This document shows positions 662-22,859 of a stretch of DNA of 32,000 bases, piece after piece. The notes under the pieces are model-generated. The model was not told the DNA's origin. It saw only the letters and a list, made by a program, of their open reading frames with translations, and searched no databases. Each line of letters starts with the position of its first letter. Position 1 is the stretch's first letter. The stretch comes from Desulfocapsa sulfexigens DSM 10523 (lineage in GTDB: Bacteria; Desulfobacterota; Desulfobulbia; Desulfobulbales; Desulfocapsaceae): assembly GCF_000341395.1 (NCBI RefSeq), contig NC_020304.1:3450001-3482000 (forward strand). Reading direction: 5' to 3'. Both the position numbers and the translations under genes were made by a program.

Positions 662-719
662 ACCATACTCCTCAGCGGATTTTAGTGACTAACTAACTGA
701 AATATAAAACTAACAAGTA

Positions 720-1082
720 CTACTCTACGGTATCAACAAGCTTCCCGCGAAGATCCTCAAGATTTGCCTGCATACCTAGAATTTCTTCTGCAGGAACCTG
801 ACGAATCACCTCATCGGTCTTGGTGTCCACAACTTTTACGACCAGTTTATTAAACTCCTGGTTATTTTCAAAGCGAACACTATAAAGACCATCTTCGGTG
901 AGCGACTTGATCTGATTCAGGAGCTCTTCCGGCTGTACACCACCACTCTCTGGAGAACTTACCTTCTCCAGATTCACATCTCCCTTCTTCAGATCTTTAC
1001 GTCCGGAATCGACGCCATCTGCTGGCCGCGGCATCTGCTGCAGTGCGGAACCCGTTGCATTCATAGCTTCTATTGACGACAT
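720..1082 (-). CDS. flaG: FlaG family flagellar protein
   Basis: 120-aa ORF between fliC and fliD. The C-terminal half (YSVRFENNQEFNKLVVKVVDTKTDEVIRQVPAEEIL) fits the FlaG family pattern. GAGGAA SD at 1089-1094, 6 nt upstream of the ATG. Confidence 0.8.
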   Translation of the reverse strand: MSSIEAMNATGSALQQMPRPADGVDSGRKDLKKGDVNLEKVSSPESGGVQPEELLNQIKSLTEDGLYSVRFENNQEFNKLVVKVVDTKTDEVIRQVPAEEILGMQANLEDLRGKLVDTVE

Positions 1083-1213
1083 AATGTATTCCTCTAGCGA
1101 AAACCGCTAATGACAGATTATTCATAAATTTAAAAAGCTGCCCTGAAAAATCACCTGCTGTTACTAATCAAAAAAAGTAACAAGAGGACAATTTTCCAGG
1201 GGGCTTTACATGT

Positions 1214-1238
1214 CGGGGGTTGTAACAACCAACCCCCG
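1214..1238 (-). terminator. Perfect 9-bp stem / 7-nt loop hairpin just downstream of the fliC stop (terminator or attenuator/stabiliser)
   Basis: cgggggttg (1214-1222) pairs perfectly with caacccccg (1230-1238). It lies 15 nt after the fliC stop at 1253. No clear U-tract follows on the minus strand, so intrinsic termination is uncertain. Confidence 0.45.
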
Positions 1239-1252
1239 AGTTGAGTTTACGA

Positions 1253-3272: not shown

Positions 3273-3300
3273 GTATCGGAAGTGGTTCCAGAATACTTTA
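3273..3300 (-). promoter_or_regulatory. Sigma28 (FliA)-type promoter candidate for fliC
   Basis: The minus strand reads TAAAGTAT-N12-TCCGATAC (-35 at 3300-3293, -10 at 3280-3273), against consensus TAAAGTTT-N11-GCCGATAA. The spacer is 1 nt longer than consensus. It would give a leader of about 165 nt. Confidence 0.5.
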
Positions 3301-3885: not shown

Positions 3886-6800
3886 ATGAAAAGAACAATA
3901 CAATCGGTAATGGATCCCGAGCTACAGCTCAACACCAAATCCGACTTAGTTTATTACATTACTTTTCCAGATAATTACAACCCAGCAGTCGAATACCCTC
4001 TAATAATTTCCATTGACGGATATGGTGGACACCCTGGGTCTGAATATCAGTCTGAAAAACTGAGACCTTACTTAAGTGAAAAATATGAATCTATTGTTGT
4101 AGGAGTGTCGTATCACGGCATCAACAGGACTGGAAGTGTAGTTGAATTTTCTCCTGAAGCGTGGGAATCTATTTTCGATTTAGAACCAGGTGAATTTACT
4201 AAGAGGTTTGTAGCAGGCAAACCAATGGACAAAATATTTGATGATATTTTTGCCTTTTTGGTTGAACGAAAAATCTCAAGACTTTCTCCCCTATTGGCAG
4301 TTAAAACTACCTTGCCTGACAAATACTCTTCATTTGGTTTTTTACCTGCCATAGAACATTTGAATGTTCTTTACGACATACTCTCAAACTATAAAATAAA
4401 ATTATCAGAAATTAACATCCTGGGGACATCCTATGGTGGATATATTGCCTTATTGATGGGCAAATTCGCTCCCCATACATTCAATTTTATAATTGACAAT
4501 TCTGGCTTTGTCGCCACACAATTTTCTGAAATTCACCCATCACTGGTAACAAGTAGTGCCAGTTATATGCGAATGGTTAATGGAAAAAGATATGAAATTC
4601 CGGCAACCACAAAATCATTATGGGAGAACAACGAATTTTCAGAAAAGTATTTTTCCGACGCCAACAGAATGATACGCAATGTTACTGTGAAAGAGCATAT
4701 GCTTGAGTCTGACACAAAATACTTTTCATACCATTCCAAAAAAGACATTATTGCCTTACTAGCTGAAAAAAAGATGTTTTGTGACAAATTGAAAGAATTC
4801 GCCTATGTCGATTTTTCAGAAATCGGCGACAAAGAAATTGATGGTTCATTGTTTAAAAATCTCAATCACGGCATGAACGCCTCTCTGCGAAAATTATATG
4901 ATGTTACATTCCAGAAGAATGCACTTGTAAACAAACAACATAAATATCAAACTGATTTTCATCTCAAGTCTAAGCATGTCTTTGACTGTTTCAGTAAAAA
5001 ATATGAGTTTACATACTGCCTTGATAAAGGTTTAGAAGTCAAAGTCACCTCACTCAAGATGAATCCATCAGTATCGAACCACAACAACTGTATCGACGAT
5101 AAAGATATTCCGCTAAATTCAACTATGCAAAATGACATGAAGAAACAGCCCACCATCGGTACAAAGACGCTTACACTGACTCACCTCCCCCCTTCATACA
5201 AAAACGATATTTTCAATCAAAACCTTGCATATTTCAAAGCAAAGCATCCGTCACTTTACAACATGGTAATCAATCATAAATGCAATGAGTACTGGCTTTG
5301 CAGTAATCCAGATGGAAGCCCAAATATATATGAGATAAAGAGCAACTCACCCTTATATAAGGTCTATAACAAAAAATCATTATTCGATAATATCAACAAG
5401 AATATTTCAGGACTTTCGGCCAATGCTACAATTGCTGAGGCATTTGTGGGTGGAGGGAATGATCGTTGGAAAATTAATAGTCCTATTCAATGTCAGATGC
5501 TTAATGATTTGTTCGCAAATGGTATATTTAAAAAATTAGGTGTCAATTATGACAACCTTGCACCATTCAACAATTATAAAACTGACTTTATGCCCCTGGT
5601 TCGAGTTTATGGAATAGGTCTGGGATACCACATAACTGAATTACTGAGAACAAGAAATGTTTGCTACATGACCATCTACGAACCACACCTTGATCTTTTT
5701 TACACCTCCCTCTTCACGGTACCGTGGAATCTCCTTTTTAAATATTTTGACACCAACGGCAAGGGGGTTAACCTTGTTATAGGTGACACTGCTGACAAAG
5801 CCGTCCTTAGTAATATTACTTTTATTAAAAACCGATTCATGCCACTTACTAGCTATTTCTACCGTTTAAATCATCTTAATTCTTTGCAATCAAAAGAACT
5901 TATCCAGAAAGAACCTCAATCAGATTCCATTGAAAGATCACAATCAGATGCAGGATGGTACGAAGATCAGAGGACAGGTTTTTATATGAGTGCGAGGAAT
6001 ATAAAGAAAAGAAATAAATTTTACACAGGACGACGAACCAAAAAGACATTTCGCGCTTTTGTTGTTGGAAGTGGCCCTTCACTCAATGATTCGATTTCCT
6101 ATATAGAAAAACATCAAAATGATGCTCTCATTTTCTCATGTGGATCTGCAATAACTCCTTTGCTCAAAGCTGGAATAATTCCTGATTATGAGATTGTTCA
6201 GGAACGAACATGGCATTTCCCCAAACACGAGGAAAAACACGATCTTGCTCTTGTAAAACAGATATCACTTCTTAAGCTCAATGTCGTAAGCCCCAAAATT
6301 GATCACTATTATAAGGAAACTCTTGTTTTTCAGAAATTCAGGGATCCAGGTTCTTCATTTTTAGGAAAGGACTATGCAGTGACTACCGCAGTAAACCCTA
6401 CAGTTACTAATGCCGGAATCGCTATCAGTGCTGCCCTCGGCGCAAAAGAGGTTTATCTTTTTGGTGTGGATTATGGCGCACCTGCAGAGGGTAAGAAAAT
6501 GCATGCTGCAAATACCCTCCATGACCATTCCCCTGTAGATGATAGCGTGGATGCAAAAGCCACATCCGACATTCCAGGAAACTTTGGCTCAACTATACGT
6601 ACTACCTCGGTGCTGTCCTGGTCCTTACAGACAACGGAAATGAAAATTGCCGAATTCCCAAAAATACGTTGGTATAACGTCGGTGAAGGTGCTCGTATTT
6701 CAGGGGCAATTCCAACAAAGGTAGAAAATCTTCCAAAAAAATACTCCGGGAAAACGTCAAAGAAGGATTTACGGAAACAGGTATCAAGTTGTTTCAACAA

Positions 6801-7197
6801 TAATTATTCATCCGATGAAATACTTAACAGGTTAAAAACAGTACAGATGAATCAAATCGAAGAATATCTACAATCTTTGCTTGGGTTCACAACTGCAACG
6901 CCGCAAACCAGAGAGGAGATTATCAACACTCTCCAACTGTTATATTCGGCGGTGAATGTGGGAAAAAATCAAACTAACTTCCTGCCATCCTCCCTCTTGC
7001 CATATGGTTTTATGCAATTTATTACCAGCGTCTTTATTCAGTGCTCGATGGAACCCACTGATGAAGGGGCAGTTCAATTTTTTGAAACATCCAAGAGAAT
7101 TTTGGCTGAATATATAAACAGCATACAAACGGATATACAAAAGATGTTAGACTATATTGAGCGCGACGAAGAGACTGAGTTAATTGAGGCATGGTAA
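3886..7197 (+). CDS. maf: Fusion protein: N-terminal alpha/beta-hydrolase-like domain (aa ~20-345) + motility accessory factor (Maf, DUF115/MAF_flag10) flagellin nonulosonic-acid glycosyltransferase (aa ~436-1103)
   Basis: One uninterrupted 1103-codon ORF. Nucleophile elbow G-T-S-Y-G-G (Ser182, nt 4429-4431), with later candidate acid/base residues in YHSKKDIIA (D287) and NLNHGMN (H328). The Maf part opens with DIFNQNLAYFKAKHPSLY and carries FRAFVVGSGPSLNDS (GSGPSL at 6067-6084) followed by LKAGIIPDYEIVQER, typical of the Maf/DUF115 core. Confidence 0.8.
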   Translation: MKRTIQSVMDPELQLNTKSDLVYYITFPDNYNPAVEYPLIISIDGYGGHPGSEYQSEKLRPYLSEKYESIVVGVSYHGINRTGSVVEFSPEAWESIFDLEPGEFTKRFVAGKPMDKIFDDIFAFLVERKISRLSPLLAVKTTLPDKYSSFGFLPAIEHLNVLYDILSNYKIKLSEINILGTSYGGYIALLMGKFAPHTFNFIIDNSGFVATQFSEIHPSLVTSSASYMRMVNGKRYEIPATTKSLWENNEFSEKYFSDANRMIRNVTVKEHMLESDTKYFSYHSKKDIIALLAEKKMFCDKLKEFAYVDFSEIGDKEIDGSLFKNLNHGMNASLRKLYDVTFQKNALVNKQHKYQTDFHLKSKHVFDCFSKKYEFTYCLDKGLEVKVTSLKMNPSVSNHNNCIDDKDIPLNSTMQNDMKKQPTIGTKTLTLTHLPPSYKNDIFNQNLAYFKAKHPSLYNMVINHKCNEYWLCSNPDGSPNIYEIKSNSPLYKVYNKKSLFDNINKNISGLSANATIAEAFVGGGNDRWKINSPIQCQMLNDLFANGIFKKLGVNYDNLAPFNNYKTDFMPLVRVYGIGLGYHITELLRTRNVCYMTIYEPHLDLFYTSLFTVPWNLLFKYFDTNGKGVNLVIGDTADKAVLSNITFIKNRFMPLTSYFYRLNHLNSLQSKELIQKEPQSDSIERSQSDAGWYEDQRTGFYMSARNIKKRNKFYTGRRTKKTFRAFVVGSGPSLNDSISYIEKHQNDALIFSCGSAITPLLKAGIIPDYEIVQERTWHFPKHEEKHDLALVKQISLLKLNVVSPKIDHYYKETLVFQKFRDPGSSFLGKDYAVTTAVNPTVTNAGIAISAALGAKEVYLFGVDYGAPAEGKKMHAANTLHDHSPVDDSVDAKATSDIPGNFGSTIRTTSVLSWSLQTTEMKIAEFPKIRWYNVGEGARISGAIPTKVENLPKKYSGKTSKKDLRKQVSSCFNNNYSSDEILNRLKTVQMNQIEEYLQSLLGFTTATPQTREEIINTLQLLYSAVNVGKNQTNFLPSSLLPYGFMQFITSVFIQCSMEPTDEGAVQFFETSKRILAEYINSIQTDIQKMLDYIERDEETELIEAW

Positions 7198-7209
7198 AAA
7201 AATAGACGT

Positions 7210-8355
7210 CTACCCGGCGACACCCAATTGGGAAAACATTTGTCCATAGATCTTTAAGGTCCGCTTTTTTGCAAGATCAATACTCTGTCTGTACTTATTT
7301 ACGGATTCTTCAGTTTCATGTAACGTTTTTGAAGCTTTACTCACGAGTTCATCTGAAAAACTGCCAGCGACAGTCACATAACGATCGTTCAGGTTAAGAG
7401 AGTCATACGCATATTGAACTCTGTCTAAGGCTGCCAATCCTACAATTGGTTTTACCATTGCCATATTGCAAACATTTGCATGATATCTCATACCGAGTAC
7501 CAGGCCACTGTTCTTATATATTGAAAAAAGTAAGTTTGCCCCTTTGTCATACTGAATACAAGGTGCGATAGTGACGTGTCGGCGAATCAAGAAATCATCC
7601 ATAGTAACCAGTAAATCAGATATTGCCCTAAGGTCGCTATAAATATGTGGAACTAAGACGACATCGAAATCTTCCTGACTAATTAGATAAGTAAGAGATT
7701 TTGAAAGCTCTTCGTAATAACGTGCAGTATCAATATTACCACGAGAATTACTTTTCATAGTCAACTGATCGCTGGTAATATTAACTGCAACGTATCTCTT
7801 ACCGTTAGTAAATATTGGATCAAGCTCAACTGGTTCGTAAAAATAGCCATTATCTAATATTTCTTCCATGTATTCCAGATAATGCTCTCCAATTTCATCC
7901 TTAAATGAATTCACCGAGCCATCGTTTCTCAAGGCAATCTTGATATTGGGCCGTGCACAAAGCTCATCAAGAAATCTTCTGAACTTAGTAATATTTCCTT
8001 CGGGTACTTCTCTATGAGGGTTACATCCAATGCTAGTTATAAGCATCGGTGTAGTGAGTTTTTTTAACACCCCGGGAAAGAAATCGATTGTCGTTCCGGT
8101 AAAGCTGTCTTTCACCCAATAATCAAGAAACCCTCCACCTCCAATTACCAGCAAATCGAAAGTGTTTGCATAATCTATAAATCCTTCATTAAATTCACAC
8201 TTATCTTTGAGGGTATAACTTTTATAAAATTTCCTGATTTCCATGCGATGGATTTCATACTTACTGAAAAACGAATCGATGATACGCTTAAACCCCATAT
8301 GACTTGCGTTATCACCTATATTGCCAAGAAAAGATGCTACATGTAAAATTCTCAT
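7210..8355 (-). CDS. Polysaccharide pyruvyl transferase family protein (CsaB/WcaK-like)
   Basis: N-terminal MRILHVASFLGNIGDNASHMG and DLLVIGGGGFLDYW, plus C-terminal LVLGMRYHANVCNMAMVKPIVGLA, resemble the conserved blocks of the PS_pyruv_trans family. Its ATG (8355-8353) overlaps the neuA stop by 1 nt (TAATG). Confidence 0.65.
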   Translation of the reverse strand: MRILHVASFLGNIGDNASHMGFKRIIDSFFSKYEIHRMEIRKFYKSYTLKDKCEFNEGFIDYANTFDLLVIGGGGFLDYWVKDSFTGTTIDFFPGVLKKLTTPMLITSIGCNPHREVPEGNITKFRRFLDELCARPNIKIALRNDGSVNSFKDEIGEHYLEYMEEILDNGYFYEPVELDPIFTNGKRYVAVNITSDQLTMKSNSRGNIDTARYYEELSKSLTYLISQEDFDVVLVPHIYSDLRAISDLLVTMDDFLIRRHVTIAPCIQYDKGANLLFSIYKNSGLVLGMRYHANVCNMAMVKPIVGLAALDRVQYAYDSLNLNDRYVTVAGSFSDELVSKASKTLHETEESVNKYRQSIDLAKKRTLKIYGQMFSQLGVAG

Positions 8356-9044
8356 TAAACCTGCCCCTTTTCTATTAAAAACTCAGCATACTGCCAGTCC
8401 TCTTGGTCATCGATATCAAGGTTAGCAACACCAGTCATGATAAAGGCGTATGCCTCTGGAATAGTATAACTTTTAACCCTTTTCAAGAGATCAATTTCTG
8501 CTAGATACAACGCACCATTGTGTTCATATGCCGCTGGCATATCCTGTCGTCTAAGCTGCTGTTGAGTATCCATTAAAGATTCTAGATACTGGCCATTCAA
8601 GCGATACATAAACATCGGATGTTTTTTTAATCTTGCAACAGAAATCATCATTCCACACTCTTCATCGAGACAAGTAGCGATGATGTTATCTATTTGCTGT
8701 GTGGTCCTGAAAGGAGAGGTTGGTTGAAGTAAGAGTAAATAGTCATATTCCTCTTCAATCTGCTCCAATGCATGCATAATGACGTCCATGCTTGATGTTT
8801 CATCTTCTGCAAGATATTTCGGCCGGGTAAACGGTACTTCACAATTTGCCATCTTGGCTATTTCAATAATTTCAAAGTCATCCGAACTGAGAATCAACCG
8901 ATCAATATATTGACTGTGTAATGCCGCCTCTATTGTCCAGCAAATCAGCGGTTTATCACCCAACAATTTGATATTTTTTTTGAGGATTCCTTTTGACCCT
9001 CCTCGAGCAGTAATTAAGGCAAGAATTTTCTTCTGTTTATACAT
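8355..9044 (-). CDS. neuA: Acylneuraminate (nonulosonate) cytidylyltransferase, CMP-sugar synthetase (NeuA/LegF-type, single-domain 229 aa)
   Basis: ILALITARGGSKGILKKNIKLLGDKPLICWTIEAA is the CMP-NeuAc synthetase N-terminal signature. There is no C-terminal esterase domain. Confidence 0.85.
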   Translation of the reverse strand: MYKQKKILALITARGGSKGILKKNIKLLGDKPLICWTIEAALHSQYIDRLILSSDDFEIIEIAKMANCEVPFTRPKYLAEDETSSMDVIMHALEQIEEEYDYLLLLQPTSPFRTTQQIDNIIATCLDEECGMMISVARLKKHPMFMYRLNGQYLESLMDTQQQLRRQDMPAAYEHNGALYLAEIDLLKRVKSYTIPEAYAFIMTGVANLDIDDQEDWQYAEFLIEKGQV

Positions 9045-9051
9045 GACGTTT

Positions 9052-10176
9052 TTACCCTACATCTCTGAAAAGTTTTTGGTTTGATACTTTCCAAACATCT
9101 TCCTTGAGGGCCTGCGTAAACTGTTTAGCGCTATCTCCCAGCCCATAGTAGTTGCATGCTGGATACGATTTTGAAATTTGTGACTGCTTAATCGCTGAGA
9201 GAATAGCTTCTCGATCAAAGGGAACATCAAAAATACTGGGATGTTTAAATCTGTTCTGTTGGCGAGTACCAATGTTTATTGTTGGAACACCATATATTGG
9301 GGCTTCGTGAATACCAGCACTGGAATTCCCGATTAAACAATCAGCATTTCTTAGAAATGTTAAATAATGCTCAAACCTCAAAGAAGGAAAGATTCTGATA
9401 TTGTTCTTTTTTTGTAAACGCTTATATGCAGCAAAGATATACTCCGATCCAGAATCATTATTAGGATAAATTACGATATAATTCCGCTTGCTTTCCAGTA
9501 GAGCATCCGCAAAAAGTGCAGCGTTATCGAACTGGATTTCCAATTCTGTCGTAACCGGGTGCAACATTGCAACCGAATATGAGTCAAAGGTCACTTCATA
9601 TCGCGCTTTGGCTTCTTCGAGGGAAGGCAGTTCATCGGATAGCATGACATCGACATCTGGTGATCCAATGCAATAAATGGCATCTGGATCTTCACCCAAT
9701 TGCTTCAAGCGTTGTTCTGCTTTGTCATTCGCGACAAAGTGAATGTGTGACAACTTCGAAATAGCATGCCTCATCAGCTCATCAACGGTTCCAGAAATTT
9801 CACCACCTTCAATATGTGCAACCAATATATTTCTCAATGCGCCTACCGTTGCACCCGCCAAAGCTTCAACCCTGTCCCCATGGACAACAATCAGGTCAAT
9901 TTTATTCTCAGCAAGATACCGACTTAATCCAATAATTGTATTTGCAAGGACAACTTCCATACTTTCCCCTTCAACCTGATTCATAAAGGTAAAAAGATTG
10001 TCAAATCCTGACCGGGGAATCTCTTTTATGGTACCACCGTATTTGGCAAGCATATGCATACCTGTACCAAATATCTGGTATTCAAACTCATTTGATTCCT
10101 TAACTGCACGAATAAGTGATTTCAATTTTCCAAAATCTGCACGAGTTGCTGTGATGAAAAGAATTCTTTTTTTCAT
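9052..10176 (-). CDS. neuC: UDP-N-acetylglucosamine 2-epimerase (hydrolysing), NeuC/LegG-type
   Basis: MKKRILFITATRADFGKLKSLIRAV...GTGMHMLAKYGGT...VHGDRVEALAGA...AHIEGGEISGTVDELMRHAISKLSHIHF matches the NeuC-type epimerase pattern. Its ATG directly follows the neuB TAA (10179-10174, TAAATG). Confidence 0.85.
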   Translation of the reverse strand: MKKRILFITATRADFGKLKSLIRAVKESNEFEYQIFGTGMHMLAKYGGTIKEIPRSGFDNLFTFMNQVEGESMEVVLANTIIGLSRYLAENKIDLIVVHGDRVEALAGATVGALRNILVAHIEGGEISGTVDELMRHAISKLSHIHFVANDKAEQRLKQLGEDPDAIYCIGSPDVDVMLSDELPSLEEAKARYEVTFDSYSVAMLHPVTTELEIQFDNAALFADALLESKRNYIVIYPNNDSGSEYIFAAYKRLQKKNNIRIFPSLRFEHYLTFLRNADCLIGNSSAGIHEAPIYGVPTINIGTRQQNRFKHPSIFDVPFDREAILSAIKQSQISKSYPACNYYGLGDSAKQFTQALKEDVWKVSNQKLFRDVG

Positions 10177-11223
10177 TTATTGAATATCGCTCCAGTCTAA
10201 GTGAACATTCATTGTAATATCCCTGGCTGCTCTTTTCCCTAGTACGTTATTGTATTCTTCAGCCGATATTTTTCCTGTACCTGGTCTTTTAACCCATATA
10301 TTTTCCTTTGAAAAAACCTCTCCCTCCTTTACAGGCAGAATAGTCACAACAGTGGCAAAGGCAAAATCCCTGGTTACCTGTTCCTCGTCTAAAAGACTTG
10401 TTTTGTCTCCCCCTCTTTCTAATTTTAAAATTTTACTTGAGGCGATGAGTTCATTCAACTCACTTGGAGTCATGGAGCAGACTATATCTGGTCCTTTCCG
10501 ATCCTTTGAGTCAGTAAAATGTCTTTCAAGAATTGACGCTCCAAGAGCAACCGCCCCTAGACAGGCCAAATTATTGGTGGTGTGATCAGAGAGTCCAATC
10601 ACGGCATCGGGAAAAGCTTCTTCCAGATCAAGCAACGCGCCTAAACGTACTAATTCTGGTGGGGTTGGATATAAATTAGTTGTATGTAACAGGGCAAAAG
10701 GGATCGTATGTTTCCGTAATATCTTAACTGCTTTTTTTACACCTACCAAATCATTCATTCCCGTACTGAGAATGATGGGCTTTCCAAATGAGCATATATA
10801 TTCCAATAGAGGATAATTGTTACATTCACCCGAGCCCATTTTAAATGCCGGAACATCAAATTTCACCAAACGGTCGACAGCTGCTCTTGAAAAAGGTGTA
10901 CTGATAAATATTGCTCCTCGAGACTCGGTATATCTTTTAAGTTCCCATTCTTCTTCTTCATTGAGAGAACATCTATCCATAATGTCATAAATAGAGTCAG
11001 GGGAATTACCAGGGATAGTTTTTTTGGCAGCATCGCTCATTTCATCTTCCACTACATGAGTCTGGTGCTTAATTATCTCTGCTCCCGCCGATAGAGCCGC
11101 ATCTACCATTTCAATGGCAGTCTGAAGTATGCCTTCATGGTTGATTCCTATCTCTGCAATAACAAGTGGATCGTGATGATAACCGATCCGTCTATTTGCT
11201 ATTTGAATTTCCGGTTTTTTCAT
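10177..11223 (-). CDS. neuB: N-acetylneuraminate (nonulosonate) synthase, NeuB/LegI-type, with C-terminal SAF domain
   Basis: PLVIAEIGINHEGILQTAIEMVDAALSAGAEIIKHQTH is the NeuB-family signature. The C-terminal VKRPGTGKISAEEYNNVLGKRAARDI segment is SAF-like. Confidence 0.9.
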   Translation of the reverse strand: MKKPEIQIANRRIGYHHDPLVIAEIGINHEGILQTAIEMVDAALSAGAEIIKHQTHVVEDEMSDAAKKTIPGNSPDSIYDIMDRCSLNEEEEWELKRYTESRGAIFISTPFSRAAVDRLVKFDVPAFKMGSGECNNYPLLEYICSFGKPIILSTGMNDLVGVKKAVKILRKHTIPFALLHTTNLYPTPPELVRLGALLDLEEAFPDAVIGLSDHTTNNLACLGAVALGASILERHFTDSKDRKGPDIVCSMTPSELNELIASSKILKLERGGDKTSLLDEEQVTRDFAFATVVTILPVKEGEVFSKENIWVKRPGTGKISAEEYNNVLGKRAARDITMNVHLDWSDIQ

Positions 11224-11262
11224 GTCACCTCGCTCAAAATAATTTTTGATTATTTATTAAAC

Positions 11263-11523
11263 TCAGCCACCTTGAGCTGGCTCTGCGGCAGGAATTGTTA
11301 TATTGGTATATATATCGACAAACGTCACATCTCCCAATAGTTGTCTAATAGTTTTATCATTGTTTGCTGACTCTTGAATACGATCATAATCATATTTAAA
11401 ATTTAAGTGCACGACACCGAAGACAACTATCTCCCATTTCTTCATATCAGTACGTACATTATTATGGTCAGCTCCCGGAGCGTGCACCTTTTCAAAGAAG
11501 AAAAACTCGGCTACGTGGGGCAA
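11263..11523 (-). pseudogene. Possible fragment of an IS5-like transposase N-terminal (DUF772-like) domain; otherwise an orphan 86-aa ORF
   Basis: APGADHNNVRTDMKKWEIVVFGVVHLNFKYDYDRIQESANNDKTIRQLLG loosely follows the G-x-P...R-x-M...LKH-x-YNLSD-E...N...F-x-G pattern of InsH-type N-terminal domains. TTG start with a stop immediately upstream. No DDE domain follows. The resemblance is weak. Confidence 0.25.
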
Positions 11524-11872
11524 GATTAGAACAGTCTATTGTTGCATTTCCAGAACTGCAAAGGCAGCATATCATACCAGTAGTAATGGAAATTTTAGTA
11601 TCAGCACGACAAGTAATTTACTTAAATTTAACTAGATCTTTTTTACTGGTGGCATATGACATCGTTGGCCGAAGATCTTCTGCTCAATGAAAAATCCTGT
11701 GAGATCAGAATACTAACCAAATATTATTAACATATATCATATTTTCGGCGTGGTATGCAAACAACAACAGGATGTTAATTTGTAAAAAAACAACAATTTA
11801 GAAAAATATTCGCTTCGTAACAAAAAAATACCAGATTACCACTATTCCTCAGCCTACCCGTCTGAGGAGGAA

Positions 11873-11971
11873 TTGTTTCGTGTTGATTATATGGGCATCT
11901 GCGGCCTGAACGGCCGCAGCAGAGCCCCCATTGATGGGTTTATGGAGTCCCATGTAATCGACACGGAACAA
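11873..11971. repeat. 99-bp imperfect palindrome: 23-bp outer arms enclosing a GC-rich 8-bp hairpin (candidate structured RNA, MITE-like or REP-like element)
   Basis: 11873-11895 pairs with 11971-11949 at 23/23 positions if the 3 T:G positions count as G-U (20 Watson-Crick + 3 G-U, all wobble only in plus-sense RNA). Inner hairpin ctgcggcc-tgaac-ggccgcag at 11899-11919. Verified base by base. Confidence 0.6.
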
Positions 11972-12393
11972 CTCAGGGTTGCAAAGCTGAGCTTCGATGG
12001 TAATCAGGAAAAAATATGTTACAGACATTTGGTAGTTATTATTATCTCGTTCAAGCCCTAATTAGCCATATCAGATTTGAGGGTTTTATAAGTTTGTTGG
12101 GATATACTTTCACCTTCCCTAGAGGTATAGAGACAATGATGGTACATCACAACTGGTTCAACAACTTGAAAAACCTCCCAGCCAGATTAACATCTTACAT
12201 TCACAGAAAGGCAAATTGAAGCCAGGAAATATTTTCTTTAAAGTGCGCATACCAAAGTATACTTTCTAATTCCCAAACAATGACAGGTGAAAATTGTTGA
12301 GTTTTGAACTGAATTAGATAATTTATTGATACAAAATTTGATAGATGATAAAGTGTGTGATTGTAAAAAAAAATCTCGTTATATCTTGTATTA

Positions 12394-12422
12394 TTAACTA
12401 AAATAATGGGAAACGATATAAT
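12394..12422 (+). promoter_or_regulatory. Sigma70-like promoter candidate upstream of the PilZ genes
   Basis: TTAACT (12394-12399) - 17 nt - TATAAT (12417-12422), about 90 nt upstream of the GTG start at 12510. AT-rich context, so the false-positive risk is high. Confidence 0.25.
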
Positions 12423-12509
12423 GTAGTGTTTTGGAAATCGTTATACTTTCTTCTGAAGATAATCAGGCTCAGAGTATTGACTCTCTATAAATTTGACTAA
12501 GGATATCAA

Positions 12510-13199
12510 GTGACAGAGCAGAATGAATTGTTATCGAAAACATACAGTGACAAACCTGTCAGGCTTTTTCTGCCGATGCTCAACAGTGACGACAGACTGT
12601 TGGTCCACTGCATCCTTCAAAAGGGAACCGGTAAGCACTTCAATTTGTTGTTTAAACAGGGGACACTTCCTGTAGACAATATAGACACAAACACCTCATG
12701 CCTCATCAGCCTGGATGATGCTGGCCAGAGTATCTCTCTGGAGAGTAACATCACCAAAATTATAAACGATCAGACCCTGGAGATGGTTCTGCAAAAAACC
12801 ATCAGCCATGAACAGATGCGCGAATACTTCAGGGTTGATTGTACAGTCCCAATTATCATAAAATCTGTTATCCCTCCTGGATTTGGAAACCCTGAGGAAC
12901 AATGGAAAATTTCCGGTACTACAGCTGATCTCAGTGGATCAGGACTTCGCGCCAGCTTTACCGAAGCACCTCCTGCCAACACTCAGGTTCGATTGGAACT
13001 GGCGTTGCCAACAACTGAACCGACCGTTATCAAAACCCTTGCCTCCCCCGTACGTATTTCCCAACTCACCGAAAAACTCTGGGATGCAGCCTATCGCTTT
13101 GATGAAATAGAAGATGAGGATCAGGATGCTATTATCGGATGTTGTCTTGTTGCCCAGAGGCGGCTGCTTCGACTGAAAGTTAAAGTAAAGGGAAATTGA
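12510..13199 (+). CDS. YcgR-like PilZ domain protein (c-di-GMP receptor / flagellar brake-type architecture), paralogue 1
   Basis: RxxxR motif in M-REYFR-VD (R104-R108) and D-L-S-G-S-G (D140-G145) form the PilZ c-di-GMP binding signature. An N-terminal domain of about 100 aa precedes it, as in YcgR. GTG start with AAGGA SD at 12499-12503. Confidence 0.8.
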   Translation: MTEQNELLSKTYSDKPVRLFLPMLNSDDRLLVHCILQKGTGKHFNLLFKQGTLPVDNIDTNTSCLISLDDAGQSISLESNITKIINDQTLEMVLQKTISHEQMREYFRVDCTVPIIIKSVIPPGFGNPEEQWKISGTTADLSGSGLRASFTEAPPANTQVRLELALPTTEPTVIKTLASPVRISQLTEKLWDAAYRFDEIEDEDQDAIIGCCLVAQRRLLRLKVKVKGN

Positions 13200-13211
13200 A
13201 AGGAATTCACG

Positions 13212-13889
13212 GTGACTGCTTCAATATCAGAGACGATCAAGAAAATAGCCGACAGCGAAACGGCTAAAATTGATATACCAACCAAAAATAATCAGACAAT
13301 CCGTCTCGATTGTATCTATAAGGAGTCCATTTCTCCGAATTTTTTCCTGGTCTTCCCTCCCAAAAAACTTCCCGAAGCTATTGACCTGGAAAAACATTGT
13401 CCCGTATCTATCAAACACGGTCAAACATCCTTGACGGTGACAGCTAAAATAACGGCGATAAACGGTGACAGAACCCTTGAGCTCACAGCCAAAAACAGTG
13501 TACGACCTGAAAGTTTGAGAGAATATTTCAGAGTTGGTGCCAATGTTTCCATAACTGCCCGGTACGATCCGGAATCGATGGAAAGTAAAATCCCATCATG
13601 GAACATGGATGGGCATACCCTTGATATGTCCGGCAGTGGTGTTCTGGCGATATTCCCTGAAGATCCCAAAAGCAGGCACAAGATATCACTGCAGATCCAC
13701 CTTGCAGGCAACCGGAATCCGGTACACTGCATTGGACATGTTGTCAGGAGCAGGAGACTTCGAAGGGACAGTTATCAGGTAGCATTCCATTTTGATTCCA
13801 TTAATGCCAAAGACAAAGACTCAATCATCTCCTACTGTCTTCGCGAACAACGTAACCAGTTGCGAAAAAAAGTCCAAACCGCCGGATAA
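13212..13889 (+). CDS. YcgR-like PilZ domain protein, paralogue 2
   Basis: L-REYFR-VG (R103-R107) and D-M-S-G-S-G (D138-G143). Same two-domain layout as paralogue 1. GTG start preceded by AAGGAA at 13200-13205. Confidence 0.8.
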   Translation: MTASISETIKKIADSETAKIDIPTKNNQTIRLDCIYKESISPNFFLVFPPKKLPEAIDLEKHCPVSIKHGQTSLTVTAKITAINGDRTLELTAKNSVRPESLREYFRVGANVSITARYDPESMESKIPSWNMDGHTLDMSGSGVLAIFPEDPKSRHKISLQIHLAGNRNPVHCIGHVVRSRRLRRDSYQVAFHFDSINAKDKDSIISYCLREQRNQLRKKVQTAG

Positions 13890-13959
13890 GTGCAATTGGT
13901 ACTTTGTGCCGCATTGCATTATCCATTAAGATAGTGTCTCCCTTTGCCGAAAGAGTACT

Positions 13960-15003
13960 ATGACTCCTATCAACGCACTTTCGCCTATTAAGGCTGTGGG
14001 AACGGCGACATCAGACGGCAGCGGCAGGCAGCAGTCCCAGCAGCAGGCAAGACCCGGCCAGACCCTTTCGGCCACTGTCCTTGAATCAGCAGGAAGCAAT
14101 CGCTTTTACCTCGATATTCTTGGTGATAAAATACTTGCTCAAAGCGATAAAGTCCGTTTAAGTCCCGGCACTAAACTCGATCTGGAAGTCCTGTCAACCA
14201 AACCCCTTCTCGAACTCAGAATTATCTCCAGGACACCTGAACTTTTTTTCGGCAAAACCTTGACCCTGCTAGGTAAAAACATTGATATCGGTGGATTATT
14301 CCAATCCTTAAACAAATCACCATCCCCCTTTTTAGACCAGCTCAGCCTGACATCCCAGCAGGGACTAAAAGAGTTTCACAGCCTTCAACAACAACCCATT
14401 GACAGCAAGGACGGAGGCACACTGTTACAGCAACTGCTCGGCCGACTTGGCCTGTCTCTTGAGGCCATCCTGGGCGGTGGCAACAAGACCCCGGCCGCAT
14501 TCACGCTGAAGGCTGCCCTGCTGGAAATTGCCTCTCTGATGAAAGGTGGAGAAGAGCTTGCCGATACGACAAACAGGCTTCTTGGTACTCTGGAACTCTA
14601 TCAACTGGCCCAGTTGCGTCTAGCTTCGGAAAATTTGCTGATTTTCCCGCTTCCTCTCCCTTTTCTCGATAACGGGTATCTTCTTGTCGAGAAGTACGAT
14701 CTCCAGAAAGATGAAGAAACAACCACTCAAACACTTCGTTTTTCCCTGCACCTCTCTTTGCAGCCTTTAGGAGATATAGAGGTTATGTTTCTTCAAATGA
14801 AAGAAGGTCTGTACATTCGTTTTGCCTGCGACTCGGAAGAGAAAAAGGATTTTGCCAATAGCCAGAGAGAGACCTTAATAGAGATGATCAGTTCGACGGA
14901 TCTTCTCGGGCTCAGCTTTACTGATGGGGCCGGTAATCCAGCTAATGAACTGATACAACAGCTGGCTCCAGCCGGTAAATCCATACTTGATACCAAGATA
15001 TAA
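13960..15003 (+). CDS. FliK-like protein (flagellar hook-length control C-terminal Flg_hook-type domain), short form, 347 aa
   Basis: The C-terminal region TLRFSLHLSLQPLGDIEVMFLQMKEGLYIRFACDSEEKKDFANSQRETLIEMISS follows the FliK C-terminal pattern (L.L.P..LG.v.v.......l.v.f.a......l......L...L). Gln/Ser-rich N-terminus. Confidence 0.6.
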   Translation: MTPINALSPIKAVGTATSDGSGRQQSQQQARPGQTLSATVLESAGSNRFYLDILGDKILAQSDKVRLSPGTKLDLEVLSTKPLLELRIISRTPELFFGKTLTLLGKNIDIGGLFQSLNKSPSPFLDQLSLTSQQGLKEFHSLQQQPIDSKDGGTLLQQLLGRLGLSLEAILGGGNKTPAAFTLKAALLEIASLMKGGEELADTTNRLLGTLELYQLAQLRLASENLLIFPLPLPFLDNGYLLVEKYDLQKDEETTTQTLRFSLHLSLQPLGDIEVMFLQMKEGLYIRFACDSEEKKDFANSQRETLIEMISSTDLLGLSFTDGAGNPANELIQQLAPAGKSILDTKI

Positions 15004-15011
15004 TAATAACC

Positions 15012-15296
15012 ATGAAAAAAAAAGAACTGGAAAAAGCCGTTGCTATCCTCTACGATGCCCAGACTTCAGCATCCCCTCGGGTTGTCGCCTCTGGACAGGG
15101 AGAAGTTGCCAGACGTATCATTGAAACTGCTCGGGAAGCTGGTGTTCATATTCAGGAGGACGCAAACCTGGTTGAACTACTCTCTAAAATTGATCTTGGT
15201 GCCGAAATTCCAACCGAACTGTATCAAACGGTTGCAGAAGTTCTGGCATTTGTCTACAAGGTAAATGAGAAATTTAAAAATAAAATTGTATCCTAG
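15012..15296 (+). CDS. Free-standing FlhB C-terminal (FlhB_CC / EscU-YscU-HrcU family) domain protein, 94 aa, without TM region or NPTH site
   Basis: KAVAILYDAQTSASPRVVASGQGEVARRIIETAREAGVHIQEDANLVELLSKIDLGAEIPTELYQTVAEVLAFVYKV aligns with the part of FlhB just after the NPTH autocleavage site (AVAL.Y....aPkvvAkG.g..A..I...A.e.gvp......L...L.....g.eIP.ElY.aVAevLa.vy). Confidence 0.8.
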   Translation: MKKKELEKAVAILYDAQTSASPRVVASGQGEVARRIIETAREAGVHIQEDANLVELLSKIDLGAEIPTELYQTVAEVLAFVYKVNEKFKNKIVS

Positions 15297-15304
15297 GAGC
15301 AGGA

Positions 15305-16165
15305 ATGCTTTGGAAAAATGGTCGTAGAAGTTCCAACGTTGAAGATAGACGGAGAATACGAATACCCGGAGGAACCAAGAAGGGGGGTGGTATTGGCATA
15401 CTTGTACTCGCTCTGGTGGGGATGTATTTTGGCATAGATCCCGGCATCATTATGAATATGGCTGACGGTTTACAGCAGGGTTCCCCTTCTCAAACCAGTA
15501 CAGCACAGCCAAGTGCTGCAGAACAGGAACTTGCTGACTTTATTTCAGTTGTTCTGGCAGACACCGAAGACACCTGGACAAAGATATTTTCTGACAAGGG
15601 AGGAACCTACAGAGAGCCAAAACTTGTCCTTTTCAGTGGACAGGTTGAATCTGCCTGCGGTTTTGCCCAGGCTGCCATGGGCCCCTTCTACTGCCCTGCC
15701 GACCACCAGGTCTATATAGACTTATCCTTTTATCAGGATCTTAAAAATAAGCTCGATGCGCCAGGCGACTTTGCCCAGGCCTATGTTATTGCCCATGAGG
15801 TTGGGCACCATGTGCAGAAACTGGTCGGAATCAGCGACAAGGTTCAGGAGCTACGACCACAGATTTCCGCGAAGGAGTATAATAAACTTTCAGTCAAAGT
15901 TGAGCTTCAAGCCGACTGTTTTGCTGGTATCTGGGCTCACCACGCAGATAAGGTTCGTAATATCGTTGAGCCTGGAGATATCAAGGAAGCTCTGAATGCC
16001 GCCAGTCATATTGGTGATGACCGCCTCCAACAACAGTCTCGGGGATATATCACCCCCGACTCATTCACCCATGGTTCTTCATCCCAGAGGGTGCGCTGGT
16101 TTAAGACAGGCTACAGCGCAGGAACCATGGAAGCCTGCGACACATTCAGCAGCAGTAGTTTGTAA
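15305..16165 (+). CDS. ypfJ: YpfJ-family membrane-anchored neutral zinc metallopeptidase
   Basis: N-terminal RRSSNVEDRR plus a TM segment, ACGFAQAAMGPFYCPADHQVYIDLSFY, and the HExxH motif in YVIAHEVGHHVQ. The start lies 8 nt after the flhB-like stop. Confidence 0.85.
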   Translation: MLWKNGRRSSNVEDRRRIRIPGGTKKGGGIGILVLALVGMYFGIDPGIIMNMADGLQQGSPSQTSTAQPSAAEQELADFISVVLADTEDTWTKIFSDKGGTYREPKLVLFSGQVESACGFAQAAMGPFYCPADHQVYIDLSFYQDLKNKLDAPGDFAQAYVIAHEVGHHVQKLVGISDKVQELRPQISAKEYNKLSVKVELQADCFAGIWAHHADKVRNIVEPGDIKEALNAASHIGDDRLQQQSRGYITPDSFTHGSSSQRVRWFKTGYSAGTMEACDTFSSSSL

Positions 16166-20090: not shown

Positions 20091-21485
20091 TCAAAGATTC
20101 AGGAAAAATTTAGCAATCATAAAATAACCGAGAACTCCAAGTATATCAATTGCTGTGGTTACAAAAGGACCTGTGGCAATGGCAGCGTCAATATCAAAAC
20201 GTTTTAAAATAAGTGGAATAACAGTACCAATTGTTGCAGCCATGGCCATAGAAAAGAATATTGAAAGTCCTACAACCAGGCCAAGAAGTTTTGGTTCCGC
20301 ATATCCAAAATAGGCGAGTACCCCTAAGAAACCACCATAAAGGATCCCCAGAATAACACCCACTCGCATCTCTTTAAAAATTATTTTATGGAAATCTTCC
20401 ATATTAATGCGGCCTGTGGCGATGCCGCGGACAACGATGGTGGAGGACTGGGTTGCAATATTGCCGCCCATTCCCATGATAATGGGGATAAAGGCTGCGA
20501 GTGCAAGAACCTTGGTAAGCTCTTCTTCAAAGGCGCCAATAATGAACAATGCCATAACACCTCCGATCCAGGAAGCAAATAACCAGGGAGCACGAAGAAC
20601 GACATTTTCCGAAGTGGATTTTAGAAGAATTTCTCTATCTTTACCGGCACCGGCCATCTGTAAAAAAGCCTCGGTGGCTTCTTCCCGCATAACATCAATA
20701 ATATCATCCACTGTTACGATACCAACAAGCGTGTAGCTTGCATCGACAACAGGAACCGCGAGGAGATTATACTGGGAGATCACATGGGCAACTTCTTCCC
20801 TGTCGGTATCAGTACTTACTGACAACACATTCTTCTTCATGATATTTTTCAGTTGCCTGTGGGGCGGATTGGTAAGAAGTTCACGAAGTGAAACAACACC
20901 GGCAAGTTTACCATCGCCGAAGGTTATGTAGAGATAAAAGACCATCTCTTTTTCTTCACTTCTTTTCTGTACCTTGGCAATAGCTTCACCAACGCTTAAC
21001 TCCTCATCCAGATACATAAAATCTGGAGACATCAGGCCACCCGCACTTTCTGGATGATACTGAAGCAGTTCATCAACCTCTTCCCGATCAGCCTGTTCCA
21101 TTTGAGAGCGTATTTCAGCCCCAAAATCATCGTCCAATGCTTCTATAATATCAGCAGCATCATCCGAAGCCATCTCACTGATAACGTCGGCCATGAATTT
21201 CGGGCTGAGATTTTCAACAAGAGGCACCATGACTGATTCATCAAGTTCACTTATAAAATCACCCACCTGATCGGTCTGGGCCAGAATATCAAAGACTTCC
21301 TTGCGCTCAAGTTCCGAGAGATGTCTGAACACCCAGGCTGTATCAGCAGGATGGGTCTTAGTGATAAGTTTCAGGAGGTTTTCTGTGGCACCACGACGAT
21401 TCAATCTGCGGATCATATCGAGCAGCAGTTTCCCCTCGGTACCAATAAGTTCTTTTTTTTCGTTTTTTTCCATTACTATCACCAT
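20091..21485 (-). CDS. mgtE: Magnesium transporter MgtE
   Basis: MgtE N-domain, CBS pair (VGIVTVDDIIDVM) and TM domain with MGMGGNIATQSSTIVVRGIATG. An alternative start is ATG 21473 (MEKNEKK), which has GGTGA 5 nt upstream. Confidence 0.93.
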   Translation of the reverse strand: MVIVMEKNEKKELIGTEGKLLLDMIRRLNRRGATENLLKLITKTHPADTAWVFRHLSELERKEVFDILAQTDQVGDFISELDESVMVPLVENLSPKFMADVISEMASDDAADIIEALDDDFGAEIRSQMEQADREEVDELLQYHPESAGGLMSPDFMYLDEELSVGEAIAKVQKRSEEKEMVFYLYITFGDGKLAGVVSLRELLTNPPHRQLKNIMKKNVLSVSTDTDREEVAHVISQYNLLAVPVVDASYTLVGIVTVDDIIDVMREEATEAFLQMAGAGKDREILLKSTSENVVLRAPWLFASWIGGVMALFIIGAFEEELTKVLALAAFIPIIMGMGGNIATQSSTIVVRGIATGRINMEDFHKIIFKEMRVGVILGILYGGFLGVLAYFGYAEPKLLGLVVGLSIFFSMAMAATIGTVIPLILKRFDIDAAIATGPFVTTAIDILGVLGYFMIAKFFLNL

Positions 21486-21551
21486 GTTAACAATAGCCTT
21501 AAAGAGCTATGCCGGGTTCAAGGCCTTGACTTACATCCAGATGAACGTTAC

Positions 21552-22859
21552 ATGATACATCCAGTATACCAATTCCGTCAATTTGATTTAGCCATTTCTC
21601 TTATTTTCCAGACTTTACCCATGTGTGAAATTTCCAGAACAGAAAATCCGAGCCACCGTGACATTGAAAATCTCTTTGCTCAGGCCTGTCAACTCCACCA
21701 AGACGGCAAGTTGGAAAAGGCTCTTAAGCTTTACAGACAACTCTTAAAAAAACTTCCTGGCTTATCATTACTTCACTTTAACTGCGGTCTGGTTCTCTTT
21801 GAACTCGGGTTGTTTCAGGACGCTGAAAACCATTACCGGAAAGCTGCAGGTTTGCAGGAAGACGATCCCGATATTCATTACAATCGTGGGCTTAACTTTA
21901 GAAGGTTATATAAGTTTTCAGAAGCTGCACAGTCTTTTGGATATGCCATCAAAGCAGGTGACACAACGGTTGACACATTCTACAACCTTGCACTCTGCCA
22001 CCAGGATATGGAAGATTATGCAGTAGCAGAGCGCTTGTATATGCGTATTCTTAAAGAAACACCAGACCACCTCTCAAGCCTCAACAATTACGCCTATCTC
22101 TGTCATAAATCAGGAAACATTAAAAAGGCAGAGCAACTCTACAGGCAACTGTTGTTGTATAACCCGCAGCATCAAGGCGCAAAACACATGCTTGACTCAC
22201 TCTCAGGAGAAACCCCTGACACGGCCCCACTGGAGTACGTGGAAGCTGTTTTTGACAATTATGCAACCGAATTTGAACAGAGTTTAATTGACAATCTTGA
22301 GTATAGAACCCCTACAACCTTACACACCCTTTACAACAATTTATTCCCAGACTCTTCAAGGATTCTTGCCCTTGATCTCGGGTGCGGAACCGGGTTGGCA
22401 GGACAGGAGTTTAACGATTGCTGCAGGGAAATTATCGGTGTTGATATCTCAGAAAAAATGCTGCATGTTGCGGCTGAGAAAAAGATATACAAAAAACTGA
22501 TCAAAGACGACATCCTTCACTTTCTCCAAAACAGCAGTGACGTCTTTGACTTGATTGTGGCAGTCGATGTCTTCACATATATGGGGTGTCTTGAACAGGT
22601 TTTCGCATCATGTTCGGACAGCAGTAGTGATAAGGGCCTCTTTCTTTTTTCGGTGGAAGTTTCACACAGTGAAACTTTTGAACTGAAGACAACAGGACGT
22701 TTTGGACACTCCCACGACTATATCAATATGGTATCCCAAAAAACAGGCTGGACTATTCTGAAAAGTGTCCATAGCAGATTAAGAAAGGATGGAGGAGAGT
22801 GGATAGAAGGATTTATTTTTATTCTCGAAAAACACGCAGATCCGCCAGGAAAATTCTAA
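21552..22859 (+). CDS. TPR-repeat + class I SAM-dependent methyltransferase (COG4976-like)
   Basis: TPR-like repeats (LEKALKLYRQLLKKLP, AENHYRKAAGL, AERLYMRILKETP, AEQLYRQLLLYNP) followed by ILALDLGCGTGLAGQEF...IIGVDISEKML (SAM motif I and post-I). The track start at 21321 overlaps mgtE and is rejected. Start 21552 or 21621; neither has a good SD. Confidence 0.75.
   Translation: MIHPVYQFRQFDLAISLIFQTLPMCEISRTENPSHRDIENLFAQACQLHQDGKLEKALKLYRQLLKKLPGLSLLHFNCGLVLFELGLFQDAENHYRKAAGLQEDDPDIHYNRGLNFRRLYKFSEAAQSFGYAIKAGDTTVDTFYNLALCHQDMEDYAVAERLYMRILKETPDHLSSLNNYAYLCHKSGNIKKAEQLYRQLLLYNPQHQGAKHMLDSLSGETPDTAPLEYVEAVFDNYATEFEQSLIDNLEYRTPTTLHTLYNNLFPDSSRILALDLGCGTGLAGQEFNDCCREIIGVDISEKMLHVAAEKKIYKKLIKDDILHFLQNSSDVFDLIVAVDVFTYMGCLEQVFASCSDSSSDKGLFLFSVEVSHSETFELKTTGRFGHSHDYINMVSQKTGWTILKSVHSRLRKDGGEWIEGFIFILEKHADPPGKF

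Follow-up and report, generated by a model that had tools for sequence, protein, structure and literature searches.

A fliK2-flhX pair with a predicted sigma-28 promoter, next to PilZ genes, in Desulfocapsa sulfexigens

In Pseudomonas putida, PP_4328 and PP_4329 form a fliK2-flhX operon of unknown function that depends on FliA (sigma-28), and FliK2 exists there side by side with FliK. The definition of FlhX goes back to Pallen et al. (2005), and the FlhX of Helicobacter pylori (HP1575) is described as partly replacing the function of FlhB. Comparative studies use FlhX as a standard marker of flagella, and for Nitratiruptor a study of Campylobacterota noted an 'flhX-fliK' pair that lies away from the main flagellar cluster. 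Here we describe a fliK2-flhX pair in Desulfocapsa sulfexigens DSM 10523. It lies in a window of 32,000 nucleotides (nt) of contig NC_020304.1 (positions 3,450,001 to 3,482,000; coordinates below are those of the window unless a related locus is named), within a block of five open reading frames (ORFs) at 12510-16165 on the + strand: pilZ1, pilZ2, fliK2, flhX, and ypfJ.

A first-pass annotation, made from the letters of this DNA, had described these five ORFs, with spacings of 12, 70, 8, and 8 nt, as two YcgR-like PilZ proteins, a FliK-like protein, a soluble FlhB_CC domain, and a YpfJ peptidase. The list of ORFs agrees with this layout, all five domain identities were borne out by Pfam, NCBIfam, and fold comparison, and the identical five-gene block recurs on independent assemblies. 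The annotation had also described FliK-like/FlhB-C-like pairs as lacking an assigned function. The pair already has a name, fliK2-flhX (ylqG-ylqH in Bacillus).

We consider it probable that the locus consists of three separable units in the far end of a late flagellar gene cluster. The first, pilZ1-pilZ2, would most likely encode motor brakes or clutches that depend on cyclic diguanylate (c-di-GMP), as their structural relatives do. The second, fliK2-flhX, would encode an accessory pair, a type III secretion substrate specificity switch (T3S4) protein and a free FlhB_CC domain, expressed from a sigma-28 promoter as a leaderless message. The third, ypfJ, would be a housekeeping peptidase that arrived downstream recently. 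The PilZ genes would adjoin fliK2-flhX because both were part of an ancestral late flagellar cluster in Desulfobacterota (fliC-flaG-fliD-fliS-orfA-(orfB)-pilZ...fliK2-flhX).

The pair in D. sulfexigens has the same gene order as the P. putida operon, likewise belongs to a flagellar cluster, and likewise has a FliA/sigma-28-type promoter (here a predicted one) directly upstream. In P. putida, however, flgZ lies at the opposite end of the cluster, whereas here and in relatives one or two genes for YcgR-type PilZ proteins lie directly upstream. Unlike FliK2 of P. putida, the FliK2 described here is a short protein with a beta-barrel as its N-terminal domain, and the sigma-28 box of its gene abuts the start codon, so that the message is predicted to be leaderless; the P. 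putida paper makes no mention of leaderless transcripts. HP1575 of H. pylori and FlhX here are both stand-alone homologs of the C-terminal subdomain of FlhB, with different gene contexts. In Bacillus, a large partner ORF precedes ylqH and overlaps it by 4 nt. The order rnhB-ylqG-ylqH-sucC places the pair among housekeeping genes and not, as here, in a flagellar cluster; PilZ genes are absent from its flanks, and its start codon lacks an adjoining sigma-28 box. Finally, the pair appears to combine the same domain types (T3S4 and FlhB_CC) as the switch formed by the C-terminal parts of FliK and FlhB in Salmonella. Unlike Salmonella FlhB, FlhX lacks the membrane domain, FlhB_CN, and the NPTH cleavage site, and whereas the Salmonella switch genes are class II, both genes here are predicted to be late (sigma-28).

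The FliK2 and FlhX proteins

The comparison took in 36 loci from Desulfobulbales genomes and 44 related loci from metagenomes (identified below by L numbers where needed); nearly all of the relatives are metagenome-assembled genomes (MAGs). The order pilZ1-(pilZ2)-fliK2-flhX is nearly universal among these loci, and in all related loci with enough sequence, flhX is immediately preceded by a co-directional FliK-like gene.

The third ORF, fliK2 (13960-15003, + strand), encodes 347 amino acids (aa). Searches of PDB sequences with profiles of FliK2 and of PilZ1 gave zero matches, so fold comparison was required. In Foldseek, the top PDB match of the AlphaFold2 (AF2) model of FliK2 is the T3S4 domain of PscP (5cuk, E = 1.4e-3), with a root mean square deviation of 1.3 Å over 68 columns and a TM-score of 0.61 relative to the target; the model domain has a predicted local distance difference test (pLDDT) score of about 70. 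The Flg_hook family (PF02120) is matched at E < 0.01 by 13 of the 14 aligned members of the FliK2 family (the best at 1.8e-7), and about a third of FliK2 homologs have a precomputed match to PF02120. Judging from these profiles and the model, the third ORF probably encodes a FliK-like T3S4 protein, of the type of the FliK C-terminus. In the model, a disordered but conserved N-terminus is followed by a small beta-barrel that appears OB/SH3-like (residues ~34-104), a helical middle part that is poorly modelled, and the T3S4-like domain (~226-335).

The N-terminal beta-barrel (about 90 aa) is present in one, two, or three tandem copies among FliK2 homologs. The homologs concerned include P0083 (440 aa), P0075 (534 aa), and those at L029, L034-L036, and L083-L088. 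The number of copies does not cleanly track the loss of pilZ2.

The fourth ORF, flhX (15012-15296, + strand), encodes 94 aa. FlhX matches Bac_export_2 at profile positions 262-335 of 335 only (the last 74), and it aligns to the FlhB_CC chains 3b0z_B (Salmonella, residues 5-81) and 3b1s_B (Aquifex). Its N-terminus coincides with the start of FlhB_CC, directly past the NPTH cleavage site, and the protein contains no NP[TE]H motif and no membrane segment (the maximum hydropathy over 19 residues is 0.81). The description of this ORF as a membrane-less copy of exactly the FlhB_CC subdomain is thus confirmed by the profile range, the alignment, and the hydropathy. By far the best-scoring model for FlhX is TIGR00789 (flhB_rel), and FlhX is 50% identical to YlqH of Bacillus. 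The note on the TIGR00789 family reportedly limits FlhX to species that also have FlhB.

In a metagenome scan that yielded 80 loci, the FlhX match was always a short stand-alone ORF, so FlhX is not a piece of a broken flhB. A split or fragmented flhB was ruled out in any case, as no N-terminal or membrane part of FlhB is encoded nearby and FlhX belongs to its own group of short proteins. We found no flhB in the Desulfobulbales or Desulfuromonadales loci examined. Matches to FlhX on plasmids (tblastn) were mostly full-length flhB (Cupriavidus, Acetobacter), and among them only ylqH of Bacillus was informative.

The pair also occurs in metagenome loci of a Firmicutes type, with the order ylqF-rnhB-[large ORF]-flhX-sucC or UPF0102 and no PilZ neighbour. 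Flg_hook is matched by 13 of 22 of these partner ORFs, which implies that the pairing of a FliK-like protein with FlhB_CC is ancient and widespread. It also suggests, from gene order and profile matches, that YlqG of Bacillus is the counterpart of FliK2; a profile comparison between FliK2 and YlqG of B. velezensis was not significant. The Firmicutes-type order among housekeeping genes is seen in L093, L097, L099, L106, L109, L123, and L044, where the FliK-like ORF has 368-724 aa.

Promoters and timing

The sigma-28 site of fliK2 emerged only when we aligned the upstream regions of fliK2 from relatives. The aligned consensus is TAA(n), a spacer of 15-16 nt, and (G/A)(C/T)CGA(T/A)A, with the 3' end 6 nt before the ATG. 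The predicted sigma-28 (FliA) promoter of fliK2-flhX lies at 13927-13953 on the + strand: TAAG at 13927-13930, a spacer of 15 nt, and GCCGAAAG at 13946-13953, which ends 6 nt upstream of the fliK2 ATG at 13960. The box precedes fliK2 in 29 of 31 genome loci, 27 of them with identical spacing. Of 68 distinct upstream sequences from two orders, 51 contain it; in Desulfuromonadales it is present in 3 of 5 loci (L125, L126, and L129). The strict sigma-28 pattern has a background frequency of 0.06 per kb. The flagellin gene served as an internal control for what a sigma-28 site looks like in this organism. Its box at 3273-3300 on the - strand (TAAA, a spacer of 16 nt, and TCCGATAC) is of the same type, and the fliC ATG (3100) follows it after about 170 nt, which leaves a normal long leader.

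In the open complex of the fliC promoter of Pseudomonas aeruginosa, GCCGATAA spans positions -15 to -8. By this measure, transcription of fliK2 is predicted to start at most 1 nt from the A of its ATG, so the fliK2-flhX mRNA, expressed from a late-class sigma-28 promoter, is predicted to be leaderless. A Shine-Dalgarno-like tetramer is present in only 4 of the 51 upstream regions that bear the box. flhX has no Shine-Dalgarno sequence either and starts 8 nt past the fliK2 stop codon, which suggests translational coupling to fliK2, and we consider such coupling likely.

Given a sigma-28 promoter, fliK2-flhX would be made only after the hook-basal body is complete. FliK2 and FlhX would then most likely assemble into a complex like that of FliK_C with FlhB_C, which would supplement or stabilise the export gate once it has switched to filament mode. 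A further role might involve substrates. P22, A75, and L78 of FlhX align with P287, A341, and L344 of Salmonella FlhB, reportedly the residues of a pocket described by Evans and colleagues in 2013. The pocket is a hydrophobic one on the surface of FlhBc, and it docks the gate-recognition motif of early subunits. Because FlhX retains the residues that align with the pocket, we speculate, by analogy, that late-made soluble FlhX could also sequester early-type substrates.

Alternatively, FliK2 might be the sole and ordinary hook-length control protein of this organism, with FlhX as an accessory copy, so that the locus would encode the normal switch. Our view of fliK and flhB took in this contig and the loci of relatives, which leaves room for this reading, and the FliK-like partners of FlhX in Desulfuromonadales have 577-666 aa, a length typical of canonical FliK. 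The Nitratiruptor pair outside the main flagellar cluster would also fit. However, if the established hierarchy holds, a primary FliK with only a sigma-28 promoter would be deadlocked, because export of FlgM needs the switch. Also, FliK2 is short, with a folded beta-barrel in place of the expected ruler region. Bacillus presumably has a separate FliK besides YlqG. P. putida, too, has both FliK and FliK2. We therefore regard a sole FliK as very unlikely, and prefer to see fliK2-flhX as a late accessory unit.

The promoter predicted for pilZ1-pilZ2 belongs to another class. It is of the sigma-70 type and lies at 12326-12354 on the + strand, with TTGATA, a spacer of 17 nt, and an extended -10 element, TGaTAAAGT. 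Within the 1.29-kb region upstream of pilZ1, 12316-12354 is the sole part in common with relatives (blastn, L050 and L052), and 21 of 25 relatives have the pattern TTGnnn-N14-16-TGnTAnnnT in the 260 nt before pilZ1 (about 0.02 expected). Searches of the window with sigma-54 and generic sigma-28 patterns found nothing upstream of pilZ1. A promoter scan had also proposed 12394-12422, which we dropped because 12326-12354 is the site that is conserved in relatives.

In three related loci, genes of the toxin-antitoxin type are inserted between pilZ2 and fliK2: a nucleotidyltransferase/HEPN pair in L019 (6897-8001) and L025 (842-1703), and a PIN toxin gene in L080 (1899-2657). The sigma-28 box remains adjacent to fliK2 in all three despite the inserts, which implies that the pilZ and fliK2-flhX units are separable. 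With these inserts, and with pilZ1 and fliK2 each having a predicted promoter of its own, the idea of a single five-gene operon found no support, though transcription from the pilZ promoter may read through into fliK2.

The PilZ proteins and their neighbourhood

The first two ORFs, pilZ1 (12510-13199, + strand, 229 aa) and pilZ2 (13212-13889, + strand, 225 aa), encode tandem paralogs that are 30% identical over their full length (BLASTP, E = 6e-34). Both exceed the cut-off of the Pfam PilZ model (27.4 and 49.0 bits, cut-off 22.5). The motifs for c-di-GMP binding are RxxxR at residues 104-108 and DxSxxG at 140-145 in PilZ1, invariant in 52 orthologs, and RxxxR at 103-107 and DxSxxG at 138-143 in PilZ2, invariant in 46 orthologs. 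The Pfam PilZN models match neither protein. The AF2 model of PilZ1 (the only one of the two that was modelled, pLDDT 82) nevertheless matches, over its full length and in both barrels, MotI/DgrA of B. subtilis (5vx6, E = 1e-10) and YcgR of E. coli (5y6f, E = 2.5e-8). Further full-length matches in Foldseek are MrkH, PP4397/FlgZ, and VCA0042, and also PlzA. The label "YcgR-like" is thus justified by the fold. From their motifs and this fold, PilZ1 and PilZ2 are predicted to be two-barrel c-di-GMP receptors of the YcgR/MotI type with intact binding motifs.

With YcgR of E. coli, MotI/DgrA of B. subtilis, and FlgZ/PP4397 of Pseudomonas, PilZ1 and PilZ2 share a PilZN-like N-terminal barrel followed by PilZ, the RxxxR and DxSxxG motifs, and a flagellar gene context (Foldseek E-values for PilZ1 against the three range from 1e-10 to 4e-7). 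Unlike them, the genes here are tandemly duplicated, and the family escapes both the Pfam PilZN models and PDB sequence searches. pilZ2 is missing from some relatives. Two loci encode a third, shorter PilZ-domain protein (190 aa) just downstream of flhX (L050, 3683-4255; L052, 5852-6427).

We scored the adjacency of PilZ genes where a Desulfobulbales-type locus extended 1.7 kb or more upstream of fliK2, which held for 53 loci. In 52 of them, fliK2-flhX is directly preceded by one or more PilZ genes, and in 40 by two. In most relatives, the genes lie on one strand in the order fliC-flaG-fliD-fliS-orfA-orfB-pilZ1-pilZ2-fliK2-flhX, followed by unrelated convergent genes. The clade of the window has an inverted fliC block and an inserted glycosylation island, yet its block from pilZ to flhX is intact.

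Through a distant member of the PilZ family, we also reached six loci of Desulfuromonadales. Five of the six, including one from Desulfuromusa kysingii, have the order fliC-flaG-fliD-fliS-orf133-PilZ-[GGDEF, opposite strand]-FliK-like-FlhX-dnaX; these are the loci with the long FliK-like partners mentioned above. Our tblastn criterion scored these five as lacking an adjacent PilZ gene, and gene calls show that the GGDEF gene lies in between. The GGDEF protein (L125-L126 and L128-L130, at about 7760-9000) has 322-346 aa, with a REC-like N-terminus, a GGEEF motif, and an RxxD inhibitory site (I-site), and its gene is divergent from fliK2. The sixth locus, L127, which is Malonomonas-like, has flgM-PilZ-dnaX and no fliK2-flhX pair.

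Between fliS and pilZ1, both orders have one or two small genes, orfA and orfB (for example L013, 5718-6454; L026, 5463-6309; L125, 6558-6956). Their products are fast-evolving proteins of 106-146 aa without a Pfam match, and orf133 of Desulfuromonadales is homologous to orfA of Desulfobulbales (E = 1e-17). From their position, we guess that they are FliT-like or otherwise chaperone-like. In a subclade with a long FliK2, a Roadblock/LC7 gene and a Ras-like GTPase gene follow flhX on the same strand (L086, 5551-8775; L088, 5391-9322). This is an MglB/MglA-like pair, and it is followed by a gene for a protein of 894 aa without a Pfam match.

The first-pass annotation had proposed a soluble decoy or adaptor at the export gate, placed under c-di-GMP control. 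In such a model, PilZ1 and PilZ2 would act directly on soluble FliK2/FlhX or on the export gate, and the four conserved genes would form a c-di-GMP-controlled accessory export switch. The near-constant adjacency of PilZ genes to fliK2-flhX, its survival of the fliC-block inversion and the glycosylation island, and the invariant c-di-GMP motifs argue for this. So do the third PilZ gene after flhX in L050 and L052 and the cyclase with an intact I-site that is divergent from fliK2 in Desulfuromonadales. On the other hand, the pilZ and fliK2-flhX units have predicted promoters of different classes and tolerate toxin-antitoxin genes between them. A search with the PilZ1 profile covered 1.84 billion representatives and returned 814 relatives; each of the best 150 of these stands alone, at about 220-230 aa, with no fusion of PilZ to FliK2 or FlhX among them. 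Each module also occurs apart from the other: Firmicutes-type loci and Pseudomonas have the pair with no PilZ gene beside it, and L127 has PilZ but not the pair. An obligate coupling between PilZ and the pair is not supported, then. Finally, the solved structures among the Foldseek matches of PilZ1 are annotated as effectors of the motor, of transcription, or of other kinds, and none as binding the export gate.

We regard direct control of this kind as rather unlikely. More specifically, the c-di-GMP components of Desulfobacterota (one or two YcgR-type receptors and, in Desulfuromonadales, the GGDEF cyclase) might have stayed beside a late, soluble FliK_C/FlhB_CC pair through acting on it. Receptor-bound c-di-GMP would then decide whether FlhX/FliK2 engages the export gate or sequesters substrates with gate-recognition motifs, and export specificity would come under second-messenger control. 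We consider this quite unlikely. Taking the separate promoters, the inserts, the lack of fusions, and the independent occurrence of the modules together, it is the gene neighbourhood, over two orders and with the cyclase, that remains to point to a coupling of c-di-GMP to export. We favour separable PilZ and fliK2-flhX units, and turn to the third unit.

ypfJ and the rest of the window

The fifth ORF, ypfJ (15305-16165, + strand, 286 aa), encodes a full-length zinc peptidase that matches the Zn_peptidase family (PF04228) at 406 bits and NF050010 (YpfJ) at 391 bits (cut-off 250). It has HEVGH at residue 164 and one hydrophobic segment near the N-terminus (32-50, mean hydropathy 2.03), so the expectation of a membrane-anchored HExxH peptidase downstream of flhX proved correct. 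However, ypfJ lies directly downstream of flhX in just 8 of the 61 loci with enough downstream sequence, and in all 8 of these, FlhX is at least 84% identical, which implies that ypfJ is a recent neighbour. The other 53 loci include some Desulfocapsa MAGs. Of the proposed co-conservation of five genes, then, the PilZ-fliK2-flhX part stood in both orders (with the GGDEF gene in Desulfuromonadales) and the ypfJ part did not: ypfJ is an unrelated housekeeping peptidase outside the conserved module.

All five genes might still form one functional operon in which YpfJ processes FliK2, FlhX, or a flagellar substrate. The spacing of only 8 nt between flhX and ypfJ, a scan that found no terminator between them, and the retention of the arrangement in the closest clade are in keeping with this. 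But the family is broadly distributed and of a housekeeping kind, ypfJ has its own AGGAG ribosome-binding site, and at other loci the genes after flhX are convergent and unrelated (Lon, fructose bisphosphatase, and dnaX among them). Together with the rarity of the adjacency, this makes a functional five-gene operon extremely improbable.

The block was said to adjoin a filament and glycosylation locus and to lie apart from any core flagellar export operon, and the Pfam matches of the window's genes bear this out. FliD, FlaG, and a large flagellin (615 aa) are encoded at 2-3100 on the - strand, and there are no core flagellar export genes in the 32,000-nt window. A flagellin glycosylation island at 3886-11223 encodes a fusion of DUF2920 (a hydrolase) to Maf (1103 aa), along with NeuB, NeuC, a CMP-transferase, and a pyruvyl-transferase. 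The region between neuB and pilZ1 (11224-12509, 1.29 kb) is AT-rich and has no convincing ORF; Pfam searches with its small ORFs gave no match, and neither did an Rfam search over the window. Downstream of ypfJ are a convergent pepA and then housekeeping genes. Farther downstream, an ORF for a TPR-methyltransferase (20091-21485, - strand) and mgtE (21321-22859, + strand) share 165 nt. This overlap is a probable artefact that arose when ORFs were extended to the first possible start, since the gene calls of the identical contig give the TPR-methyltransferase a later start and 412 aa.

What the locus may mean

Several points weigh against our reading of the locus as three units with a late accessory pair. 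FliK2 scores only 17.8 bits against Flg_hook, below the cut-off of 29.8, and FlhX scores 105.4 bits against TIGR00789, below the cut-off of 117.35. The AF2 model of FliK2 has low confidence (mean pLDDT 54, and about 70-75 in two domains). The two promoters and the leaderless start were predicted from sequence. The role of FliK2/FlhX as a "spare part" or stabiliser, though the most likely one, is carried over from work on H. pylori. The canonical flhB and fliK of this genome were not located, our view being of this contig and the related loci. Strictly, the synteny of PilZ genes with fliK2 over two orders, along with the conserved GGDEF gene, is more than membership in the same cluster would require.

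FlhX and FliK2 range from Firmicutes to Pseudomonas and Campylobacterota, and in the sources consulted the only functional hint is the partial substitution for FlhB_CC in H. pylori. The locus adds a sigma-28 box that abuts the start codon across two orders, which predicts that the pair is made after hook completion, from a leaderless and co-translated message. It also shows that genes for predicted c-di-GMP receptors consistently lie beside the pair in Desulfobacterota, with a cyclase in one of the orders. The known inputs of c-di-GMP into flagellar function are at the motor, at transcription factors, and at FliI. If c-di-GMP is not coupled to the pair, the locus would be the tail of an ordinary late flagellar cluster. 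If it is, the locus would represent a new way for c-di-GMP to act on flagellar export, and it would provide a function for the FlhX family.

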